From SAR202 cluster bacterium (GTDB lineage: Bacteria; Chloroflexota; Dehalococcoidia; Lucifugimonadales; UBA3495), in contig VGZV01000007.1 in the NCBI GenBank assembly GCA_016872385.1, forward strand, positions 735-64,734: 64,000 nucleotides of DNA, written 5' to 3'. The position numbers and the translations under genes are program-made. The notes beneath the pieces were generated by a model. It worked only from the letters and a program-made list of their open reading frames with translations, ran no database searches and was not told the origin of the DNA. Positions 18,955 to 20,436 of the stretch are shown here, in pieces (positions within the stretch are counted from its first letter, which is position 1; each line of letters begins with the position of its first letter).

Positions 18955-20436
18955 ATGGCCCAATCCTACGCCGGCAAGGTCAACGCCCCGGACTTCCCGC
19001 CGGGGCTGGAGTGGATTAACACCCACCGCCCCATCTCCATAAAGGAATTGCGGGGCAAAATTGTGCTGCTGGACTTCTGGACCTACTGTTGAATCAACTG
19101 CATGCACATTTTTCCGCAGTTGCGGAAACTGGAGCAGCACTACGCCAACGAACTGGTGGTTATTGGCGTGCATTCGGCCAAGTTCCCCAACGAGAAGGAG
19201 GGGGACAACCTGCGGGCGGCGGTGCAGCGGTACGAACTGCGACACCCGGTGGTCAACGATGCCGAGTTCCTGGTGTGGCAAGAGTACGCCTGCCGCGCGT
19301 GGCCTACTTTAATGTTCATTGACCCCCAGGGCAAGGTCATCGGCAAGCATGAGGGTGAGCTGCCCTACGAGGCCTTTGACCGTATCCTGGGGGAGATGGT
19401 GGCCCAGTTCGACGCCCAGGGGCTGATTGACCGCACCCCCCTGTCCTTTCACGCCGAGCCCGAGACCGTTTCAGCCCTGTCTTTTCCGGGCAAAGTGCTG
19501 GCCGATGCTGAGCAGGACCGGCTTTGCATCGCCGACTCCAACCACAACCGAATTGTAATTGCCAGCCTGGATGGGTTGGTGCGCCAGGTCATTGGCTCCG
19601 GCCAGGAAGGGCTGAACGATGGCGGCTTTGCCGAAGCTCAGTTCAACCATCCCCAGGGCATGGCCCTGGCCGGAAACGTTCTGTATGTGGCCGACACGGA
19701 AAACCACGCCCTGCGCAAGGTGGACTTGAGCGCCCAGCGCGTGGAAACCATCGCCGGGACCGGGCAGCAGGGGCATATGCGCCAGGGCCAAGGCCCGGGC
19801 AGGCGGGTGGACCTTAATTCCCCCTGGGACCTGGTGCACCGCAACAATACTCTATATGTTGCCATGGCGGGCAGCCACCAGATTTGGTCCATGACCCTGG
19901 CCGACGGTCAAATGGGGCCTTATGCGGGCAGCGGCCAGGAAGCCATTATTGACGGCCCGCTGGCCACGGCGGCTCTGGCCCAGCCCAGCGGCATCACCTC
20001 CGACGGCACATGGCTCTACTTTGCCGACAGCGAGACCAGCTCCATCCGCTATGCGGACCTGAATATCCGGGGCCGGGTTGGCACCATTGTGGGCATGGGG
20101 CTGTTTGTGTTTGGCGACGAGGACGGAGTGGAGAACCACGTGCGGCTGCAACATCCTCTGGGAATTACCTGGCTGGATGGCGCTCTGTATGTGGCGGACA
20201 CCTACAACCACAAAATCAAACGGGTGCTGCCCTCCACCCGCAGCAGTTTCACTTTTCTGGGCACGGGACAGGCGGGCTACAAGGACGGGCCGGGCGCCCA
20301 GGCTCAGTTTGCCGAACCCAGCGGCCTGAGCGTGGCCGGAGCCAGGCTCTACATCGCTGATACCAACAACCACCGTATCCGCGTGGCGGACCTGGCCAGC
20401 AGTGAGGTAAGGACAGTGGAGTTGCGCGGGCTGTAA
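18955..20436 (+). CDS. Thioredoxin-like + NHL-repeat protein, probable selenoprotein (Sec at codon 46)
   Basis: ATG 18955 with [30 protein letters not shown]...[17 protein letters not shown](19090-19092)-INCMH...IGVHSAKF, in frame with the 19102 ORF; NHL repeats follow. Confidence 0.88.
19093..19140 (+). promoter_or_regulatory. Candidate bacterial SECIS element
   Basis: Stem TTTCCGC (19111-19117)/GCGGAAA (19122-19128), loop AGTT, 25 nt after the TGA. Confidence 0.7.

Follow-up and report, generated by a model that had tools for sequence, protein, structure and literature searches.

A probable selenocysteine form of the NHLRC2/SOQ1 thioredoxin-NHL family in Chloroflexota

Locus, reading frame and gene calls

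The window analysed here (the whole stretch of 64,000 nucleotides taken from contig VGZV01000007.1 of a SAR202 cluster bacterium, Chloroflexota) carries on its forward strand a frame of 1482 nt (18955-20436) that comprises 493 residues and a terminal TAA stop, and whose sole in-frame stop is a TGA at 19090-19092 (context DFWTYC-U-INCMH, where U is residue 46). The encoded protein is the bacterial two-domain form of the NHLRC2/SOQ1 family (a thioredoxin-like domain and, after it, an NHL propeller of six blades), and we consider it very probable that its UGA is a genuine selenocysteine (Sec) codon served by its own selenocysteine insertion sequence (SECIS). An earlier interpretation of this DNA, made from its letters (henceforth the sequence-only reading), had proposed a 493-codon frame broken only by this TGA, with family-like sequence on both sides; the frame, when re-read, gave the same 493 residues and TAA, and Pfam places a Thioredoxin_8 domain across the TGA (residues 34-128), with NHL repeats after it (E 2.3e-28). 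The features of the gene are as follows (+, forward strand):

18946..18950 (+): candidate Shine-Dalgarno-like GGGAG, 4 nt 5' of the ATG at 18955, as judged from the letters
18955..20436 (+): complete coding sequence of the putative thioredoxin-like/NHL selenoprotein, from the frame, Pfam, the SOQ1/NHLRC2 matches and the structural model; orthologues align from residues 1-3
19054..19338 (+): thioredoxin-like (TlpA/Thioredoxin_8-type) domain, residues 34-128 (Pfam)
19087..19089 (+): Cys45 codon TGT, first Cys of the CC(I/V)NC motif, vicinal to Sec
19090..19092 (+): UGA, very probably selenocysteine U46, at the N-terminal attacking position of CxxC; aligns with the second Cys of CCINC
19099..19101 (+): Cys49 codon, presumed resolving Cys of U-x-x-C
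19102..20436 (+): 444-aa open reading frame (ORF) of standard gene callers, starting at Met50 and without the active site
19111..19128 (+): putative bacterial SECIS core hairpin (7-bp stem, loop AGUU), from folding, covariation and synonymous constraint
19300-19308 (+): predicted cis-Pro motif W116-P117-T118; W116 and P117 are invariant in the 109-sequence alignment A3
19480..20415 (+): six-bladed NHL beta-propeller, residues about 176-487 (24 strands in six four-stranded blades in the model)

Under translation table 11 the gene is split into 18931..19092 (53 aa) and 19102..20436 (444 aa, from Met50), and the public calls likewise begin at Met50, so that the active site is lost, as the sequence-only reading had anticipated. 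The public database entry for the window's own protein (P0002) is 444 aa long, and 100 of the 120 best database matches are 435-454-aa forms (coverage 88-91%) recorded as 'alkyl hydroperoxide reductase', 'YvrE', 'YncE' or 'hypothetical protein'; 20 of the 120 have full coverage (61-64% identity), and the 6 inspected carry CCINC. Among the 120 listed matches to a query made of the N-terminal 62 residues, none was a full-length record above 84% identity (U-bearing records may not be retrievable), and the 6 inspected were all Cys forms. These calls embody a first alternative, namely that the TGA is an ordinary stop and that the locus yields a 45-residue peptide (or nothing) together with a 444-residue NHL protein from the ATG at 19102: table-11 calling produces exactly that split, the bulk of the best matches are calls of that length, and TGA terminates other genes of the window normally (7 of its 25 long open frames). 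Such a split would nevertheless cut Thioredoxin_8 between strand beta1 and helix alpha1 and remove the active site, and further evidence against it is given below. A sigma-70-like promoter was not found in the locus neighbourhood, and terminator-like sites around the gene were not above the shuffled expectation.

Protein family and predicted structure

A search against solved structures aligned the protein with Arabidopsis SOQ1 (7DJJ, residues 10-492, E 6e-135; the site is matched by 'dfwtyccincmh') and, over both domains, with human NHLRC2 (6GC1, E 3.6e-122). That the family has CCINC at this position, as previously claimed, is seen both in the SOQ1 structure alignment and in the Cys homologues. 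NCBIfam holds no specific model (sub-threshold ResA/TlpA-type matches only), and in a comparison with the TlpA-like UxxC class (cd02966) the UxxC motif and a TlpA/ResA-like similarity were present and the NCBIfam ResA score (54.9) lay far below its cut-off of 170. The AlphaFold model (pLDDT 94.2, pTM 0.92) is that from a 109-sequence input; a 7-sequence input gave a thioredoxin domain with pLDDT < 50 and was discarded. The top Foldseek matches over both domains were SOQ1 (7DJK, TM 0.95, rmsd 1.7 A) and NHLRC2 (6GC1, TM 0.92-0.93), and the NHL part of the model matches the NHL domains of 7DJJ and 6G7W. In the model a strand (36-42) is followed by T-Y-C-U and then by a helix (47-62), which puts U46 at the N-terminus of helix alpha1; model and alignment to solved structures together thus assign U46 to the classic attacking position of CxxC, in a thioredoxin fold that faces the propeller.

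Cys49 is invariant in alignments A2 and A3 and present in 72/72 Sec forms, and Cys45 is kept in 72/72 Chloroflexota Sec forms (TGT 51, TGC 21). Some Cys forms (L127, L128, L132, L151 and L160, from Anaerolineae, Chloroflexia and one Blastocatellia) read YGCINC, with Gly for the first Cys, which indicates that the first of the two Cys in 'CC' can be dispensed with. The chain stops at residue 493, directly after the propeller, and hence shows no C-terminal beta-stranded (nDsbD-like) domain; we treat this domain as accessory and not as defining, because it is called non-conserved in PMC6107167. As the 493 residues contain no N-terminal hydrophobic stretch, the protein is probably cytoplasmic.

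Distribution and conservation of the TGA form

Full-length orthologues (58-80% identity) were found in 37 of 61 genomes spanning genus to order level, with exactly one TGA in 37/37 and with the TGA at the identical codon in 30/30 inspected loci. In a 401-genome sample of the phylum (orthologue cut-off E <= 1e-90) 79 genomes hold an orthologue, which has one TGA in 62 and none in 17; in 24 further loci this codon again reads TGA, and in two Cys forms it is TGC. Public record names place this clade in Chloroflexota, mostly Dehalococcoidia. Among 151 Methylomirabilota genomes there were 26 matches, with one TGA in 20 and none in 6 (one of the 6 not covering the site). Homologues with TGA aligned to Cys, which the sequence-only reading had named as a check, are present in all three genome sets (37/37, 62/79 and 20/26). 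Furthermore, a one-genome-per-species scan (80 loci kept of >590 matched) yielded 22 TGA forms, 57 Cys forms and 1 unresolved locus: the TGA forms belong to Dehalococcoidia/Chloroflexota and NC10/Methylomirabilales, and the Cys forms to Acidobacteriota, Armatimonadota, Planctomycetota, Binatia, Latescibacterota, Zixibacteria, Ignavibacteria, Verrucomicrobiota, Anaerolineae and others. The TGA codon was seen in more than 100 independently assembled genomes.

Three genomes flagged as unpublished (G287, G205 and G098) are inside the phylum tallies, which without them stand at 60 TGA-form and 16 Cys-form genomes, with selA in 59/60; two others so flagged (G233 and G332) were counted only in the selA total of the 401-genome sample, and a further one (G462 = L136) is one of three NC10-type rows, the NC10-type claims resting, without it, on L123, L141 and L178 and on the 151-genome sample. 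L061 (also flagged unpublished), together with L055, L065 and L144 (no site by the motif pattern), was excluded from the alignments and the tree. The rows are not independent of one another, and the same genome was reached twice in, for example, L047 = L083 and L123 = L178.

Within the 45 codons 5' of the TGA, synonymous changes occur at 14/14 conserved degenerate codons (mean entropy at synonymous sites 1.40 bits upstream of the TGA vs 1.30 downstream), and the codons before the TGA and after the downstream hairpin show free synonymous variation with the amino acids kept, which shows that a single frame is translated on either side of the TGA. An ordinary stop is at odds with this conservation of the upstream codons as protein, with the fixation of TGA at one codon (aligned to Cys) across orders and two phyla, and with its co-occurrence with a covarying hairpin and with selA (both described below), and we regard it as extremely improbable. 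A pseudogene, or a TGC or TGT misread during sequencing or assembly, might be suspected given that TGA lies one base from either codon and that the M4 peptidase gene of the window shows an apparent nonsense change. The same TGA in so many independent assemblies speaks against both, as does the rest of the gene, which is intact and under purifying selection; moreover, contigs of two other lake-water samples (runs X5 and X6) span the TGA with 0 differences, which argues that it is no sequencing error, and agrees with the sequence-only reading in having TGA and not TGC or TGT. We put the likelihood of this second alternative close to nil.

At window positions 19072-19109 metagenome contigs break and the summed depth in run X1 is about 7-10x that of the flanks; as the DFWTYC-U/C-INCMH coding stretch is near-identical across many organisms of the same samples, assemblies of the gene fragment. 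In G279:C157 two identical-scoring TGA copies (31145-32614 on the reverse strand and 37855-39324 on the forward strand) lie about 5 kb apart, and represent either an inverted duplication or an assembly artefact. Smaller thioredoxin-domain matches with one in-frame TGA (G015:C1:260013-260474, G015:C1:250868-251287, G013:C1:131899-132303, G033:C2:1583289-1583726 and G025:C1:2853980-2854381) may be further thioredoxin-like selenoprotein genes of the lineage.

The downstream hairpin as a candidate SECIS element

The 7-bp hairpin with loop AGTT that had been reported 25 nt downstream of the TGA is present (5' arm TTTCCGC 19111-19117, loop AGTT 19118-19121, 3' arm GCGGAAA 19122-19128) and lies inside codons F53-P-Q-L-R-K58; the 25 nt is the distance from UGA to loop start, and the stem itself starts 18 nt after the TGA. 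The fold of 19087-19150 (-18.7 kcal/mol, z = -2.2) was equalled by 8/200 shuffles and is thus, as a single sequence, only mildly unusual, so that the case for the hairpin rests on comparison with other sequences. An extended lower stem (19099-19108 with 19130-19139) in the single-sequence minimum free energy (MFE) fold was rejected, as pair 21-45 is unpaired in 23/54 rows. The bacterial SECIS (bSECIS) model specifies a loop of 3-9 nt, a stem of 4-16 bp, a UGA-to-loop distance of 16-37 nt and an MFE <= -7.5 kcal/mol, with a G among the first two positions of the loop and, for the most part, G or U next after it (PMC13188914). The window hairpin agrees with all four rules (AGUU of 4 nt with G at position 2 and then U; 7 bp; 25 nt; -9.4 kcal/mol, this being the MFE of a 33-nt segment).

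In alignment A1 (54 TGA forms, related and not independent) the stem covaries in the kind of test that the sequence-only reading had suggested, with compensatory changes at three pairs: 25-42 (UA 26, CG 16, UG 11, CA 1), 27-40 (UA 47, GC 4, CG 1, other 2) and 28-39 (CG 53, GC 1). Pairing extends to 92% of cells; this, the number of double-change cells and the covariation score were reached by 0/500 shuffles, and slid registers score far lower than the true one. Some of the compensatory stem changes cost amino acids (P to A, K to Q/E/R). Furthermore, the codons under the stem are synonymously frozen in 72 Chloroflexota Sec forms (CCG 68/71, CAG 67/67, TTG 71/72, CGG 71/72), their synonymous entropy of 0.28 bits (gene mean 1.275) being the lowest of 33 scorable six-codon windows. 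At the hairpin site none of the 76 Sec forms folds more weakly than -8.8 kcal/mol, and the mean MFE of the 33-nt segment is -10.5 kcal/mol in 73 Chloroflexota Sec forms vs -3.45 in 59 Cys forms. The latter use all Leu and Pro codons at the site, where they mostly read I-P-D-L-K-K; Sec forms read F/L-P-Q-L-R-K, a peptide dictated by an RNA element that lies inside the reading frame. Neither the TGA nor the hairpin is thus peculiar to this sequence, and the hairpin is conserved in Sec forms and nearly absent from Cys forms.

A group of Methylomirabilota Sec forms (L123, L141 and L178) has at the same place an unrelated hairpin, CCAGAGC-UGGAC-GCUCUGG, encoded by LPELDALE, and one genome with this NC10-type hairpin has selB at 379 bits. 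As a separate observation, L169-L177, from genomes of the phylum Methylomirabilota, have the Chloroflexota-type hairpin and the LPQLRKLER peptide, which suggests either cross-phylum transfer of the Sec gene with its SECIS or mis-binned contigs.

Sec machinery and the decoding of the UGA

The source genome (2.7 Mb, 111 contigs, 97% complete) encodes selA (555 bits), selB (321 bits; 349.6 with its C-terminal piece), selC (tRNA-Sec, 68.9 bits; called by ARAGORN as tRNA-SeC with anticodon tca) and selD (388.5 bits, with one in-frame TGA of its own), all above curated cut-offs, so that the machinery on which the sequence-only reading depended was found complete. This selD (G000:C32, locus L010) is itself a selenoprotein (HCAG-U-AAKL), its UGA being followed after about 23 nt by a strong 7-bp hairpin with loop GUU, a second G-U-loop SECIS in the source genome. 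Across the phylum sample, selA occurs in 61/62 TGA-form genomes vs 308/401 overall, and in 15/17 Cys-form genomes; in G416, a Cys form from the window's own order, selA was not detected and a tRNA-Sec match of 73 bits was found.

A third alternative holds that the UGA is read through without Sec, by a near-cognate Trp, Cys, Arg or Gly tRNA, or as Cys via sulfur-loaded Sec-tRNA machinery. Downstream hairpins can stimulate read-through generally, Cys is functional at this position in most of the family, and the Sec reading is drawn from sequence. The hairpin, however, has the loop content and the spacing of the SelB-type SECIS model, the TGA forms track selA (61/62 genomes), and the Cys-form G416 is without detectable selA, its tRNA-Sec match notwithstanding; in addition, the position is the classic Sec/Cys exchange site of the UxxC motif (PMC13188914, Table 1). 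We therefore deem non-Sec read-through very unlikely.

Several observations weigh against Sec decoding and have been taken into account in our assessment. Most hairpin columns barely vary, so that covariation concerns 3/7 core pairs in non-independent sequences; the lower stem of the single-sequence fold is not conserved, and RNAalifold alone kept 5 pairs (-4.88 kcal/mol, with a small covariation term). Sec form L043 has the loop AUUU, with no G, Sec form L052 folds differently, and 2/59 Cys forms fold as strongly as the weakest Sec form. Rfam (E <= 10, 18900-19300) returned no SECIS family and only chance-level matches (mir-492, NiCo), an absence that was expected. One TGA-form genome, G388 (93% complete, with a 58-bit tRNA-Sec match), is without detectable selA. 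No RNA run was found to contain the stretch, and we infer selenium incorporation at the UGA from the nucleotide sequence.

If the UGA is a Sec codon, the hairpin at 19111-19128 would act as its SECIS and offer the AGUU loop, 25 nt past the UGA, to SelB, which, carrying Sec-tRNA(Sec), would compete with release factor 2 in delivering Sec to the ribosome; SelB binding and the actual insertion of selenium are what we propose on these grounds.

Relation to known proteins and selenoproteins

Arabidopsis SOQ1 (7DJJ, 7DJK) shares with the window protein its two-domain fold and the DFWTYC-C/U-INCMH site. Its C431-C434 pair has been reported as redox-active and as needed for function. SOQ1 has Cys where the window protein has Sec, and bears three parts that do not occur in the window protein: a HAD domain at the N-terminus, a membrane anchor and, at the C-terminus, an nDsbD-like domain that contains a second Cys pair. 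SOQ1 works in the thylakoid lumen, whereas the window protein is probably cytoplasmic. Human NHLRC2 (6GC1), the FINCA protein, likewise combines a thioredoxin-like domain with a six-bladed NHL propeller and has CCINC in the inter-domain cleft; U46 corresponds to its Cys90 (motif residues 89-93 in the numbering of PMC6107167), and it differs in having Cys instead of Sec and, at its C-terminus, a non-conserved beta-stranded domain. The bacterial Cys forms (Acidobacteriota, Armatimonadota, Planctomycetota, Binatia, Anaerolineae and others) are 55-64% identical over the thioredoxin-NHL part and differ in having TGC or TGT for TGA, an IPDLKK-type peptide instead of FPQLRK and, nearly always, no hairpin. 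The nearest relative without NHL is the C-terminal thioredoxin-like domain of Mycobacterium tuberculosis DipZ (2HYX, 5CYY; E 4.9e-22, residues 10-148), whose active site SCINC (PMC6107167) has Ser for the first Cys and which has neither an NHL propeller nor Sec.

Known thioredoxin-fold selenoproteins with UxxC comprise thioredoxin, Prx-like thiol:disulfide oxidoreductase, thiol:disulfide interchange protein, thiol-disulfide isomerase-like proteins (cd02966) and a redoxin family (PMC13188914). In these, as in the window protein, Sec replaces the N-terminal Cys of CxxC and the SECIS lies in the coding sequence just downstream (PMC13188914); they are listed there as single-domain proteins. Table 1 of this 2026 review (119 families/subfamilies) contains no NHL fusion and no C-U-x-x-C, only generic thioredoxin-fold UxxC classes, and 'NHL' occurs 0 times in PMC13188914, PMC13326102, PMC12013277, PMC1088965 and PMC2398784 (which include the BSepDB, deep-Sep, Sargasso Sea and GOS papers). 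We found no paper naming a Sec form of the NHLRC2/SOQ1 family, and the gene may sit in BSepDB or in supplements under a generic name, or be counted in surveys among the generic UxxC classes; BSepDB reports metagenome-assembled genomes of Dehalococcoidia with 46-49 selenoprotein genes. The window protein is accordingly the first Sec form that we found described for this family; it belongs to the known thioredoxin-fold UxxC selenoproteins and introduces no new principle.

Sec/Cys exchange and the C-terminal domain

In a FastTree of 135 rows (76 Sec, 59 Cys; this method only, unrooted, with the site masked) the Sec/Cys state needs 3 changes: one large Chloroflexota Sec group holds two small Cys exceptions, and an NC10-type Sec clade lies among the Cys forms. 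As the tree is unrooted, gain and loss of Sec are indistinguishable, and the different hairpin of the NC10-type Sec form favours a separate origin for it. A C-terminal domain (about 150-170 aa, with a C-x(4-7)-C pair) is present in 45 of the 56 scorable Cys forms (11/56 being without it) and absent from 76/76 Sec forms. On the tree, this association of Sec with loss of the C-terminal domain comes down to 3 contrasts that are independent, of which about 1 is concordant (p = 1 in a sign test), and with so few contrasts we consider it a lead only.

Proposed chemistry

In the chemistry that we propose, the target of the U46 selenolate would be an oxidised sulfur in a protein substrate, be it that of a disulfide, of a sulfenate or possibly of a methionine sulfoxide, and the NHL propeller together with the inter-domain cleft would hold that substrate. 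Resolution of the adduct into a selenenylsulfide would fall to Cys49 or else to the vicinal Cys45, and a cellular reductant would recycle the enzyme. The C-U-x-x-C selenoenzyme of the sequence-only reading is sound as a statement about sequence; as to its catalytic part, we infer on good grounds that U46 is redox-catalytic, and the chemistry, substrate and reductant named here are those that such a role would suggest. With no C-terminal domain, the Sec centre would have to act directly on its substrate or pass electrons to a separate partner. For SOQ1, a 2024 preprint reports that C431-C434 is redox-active (Em -274 mV) and hands electrons on to the Cys pair of the C-terminal domain, and that the lumenal domains reduce methionine sulfoxide in LCNP (10.1101/2024.11.01.621559).

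Other findings are unfavourable to this chemistry. NHLRC2 (PMC6107167) and SOQ1 (10.1101/2024.11.01.621559) are both inactive in insulin reduction assays, the proposed substrate-facing chemistry of SOQ1 sits in the C-terminal domain (10.1101/2024.11.01.621559) that the window protein does not have, and no redox partner gene was found among the adjoining genes. The authors of the NHLRC2 structure suggested no thiol-disulfide exchange (PMC6107167), a suggestion against which a natural Sec form argues. The Sec could thus be real in an enzyme that is not a protein disulfide reductase, acting instead in a peroxidase-like manner, as a sulfenic-acid or methionine-sulfoxide reductase, or in selenium or metal handling through the Cys45-Sec46 pair rather than through U46/C49. 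The methionine sulfoxide reductase activity reported for the SOQ1 lumenal domains and the failure of the family in the insulin assay are in line with such a function, as are the retention of Cys45 in the Chloroflexota Sec forms (yet Gly in some Cys forms) and the occurrence of 'CU' motifs in several metal-related selenoproteins (PMC13188914, Table 1). On the other hand, the methionine sulfoxide chemistry of SOQ1 is assigned to cysteines of the C-terminal domain, which are absent from the window protein, and the invariance of Cys49 across the family is as expected for a UxxC/CxxC couple. We hold this alternative to be possible, if on the unlikely side, and retain as our reading the chemistry proposed above.

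A more speculative extension of this reading, which we offer with considerable doubt, is that the Sec forms represent a minimal, free-standing NHLRC2/SOQ1 enzyme whose thioredoxin-domain selenolate is itself the terminal catalytic centre, acting directly on an oxidised protein substrate held by the propeller. The gain of Sec would then go with the dispensing of the C-terminal Cys-pair domain, the SECIS-bearing gene would have moved between Chloroflexota and Methylomirabilota, and the second SECIS would have arisen independently. Within this scenario the vicinal Cys45-Sec46 pair may form a selenenylsulfide, and the reaction may be the reduction of protein methionine sulfoxide or sulfenate; a vicinal selenenylsulfide is known from the GCUG end of mammalian thioredoxin reductase. 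Were it true, it would provide a simple bacterial experimental handle on the chemistry of a human disease protein.

Significance for the family

Mammals depend on NHLRC2 as an essential protein, which is mutated in the fatal FINCA disease, and in plants a photoprotective switch is under the control of SOQ1; the chemistry of the CCINC site that the two proteins share is disputed. Catalytic redox nucleophiles are classically marked by an exchange of Cys for Sec. The presence of Sec at the second Cys of CCINC, fixed across orders and two phyla and associated with at least two different SECIS hairpins, hence offers independent evolutionary evidence that this residue (C90 in the human protein, C431 in SOQ1) is the redox-active centre, and the small two-domain bacterial protein is a place in which the disputed chemistry could be tested. 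Moreover, the gene is widespread and systematically mis-annotated (truncated to about 444 aa), so that in domain-based surveys it appears as an NHL protein stripped of its active site, and it may be missing from selenoproteome counts for Dehalococcoidia and Methylomirabilota.

Gene neighbourhood and other features of the window

The gene is neighboured by a YghX-like hydrolase, an unassigned 169-aa ORF, rplS, priA, def and cca; as these neighbours are housekeeping genes, they give no clue to its function. PMC6107167, too, found no conserved neighbours. Elsewhere in the window, the M4 peptidase gene (15560-16645, forward strand; Peptidase_M4 and Peptidase_M4_C) is interrupted at 16190-16192 by an in-frame TAA exactly where its HExxH zinc motif should have Glu (DIIGH*LAHGV); the C-terminal end, too, looks out of frame, and the gene is probably a pseudogene or an assembly error. 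Lastly, a 100-nt palindromic element (20476-20575; 40-nt arms, 80% complementary, with 20 nt between them) lies after the stop of the selenoprotein gene and before rplS; its 12-nt core occurs only there in the window, and it may be a terminator or a REP/MITE-like element.

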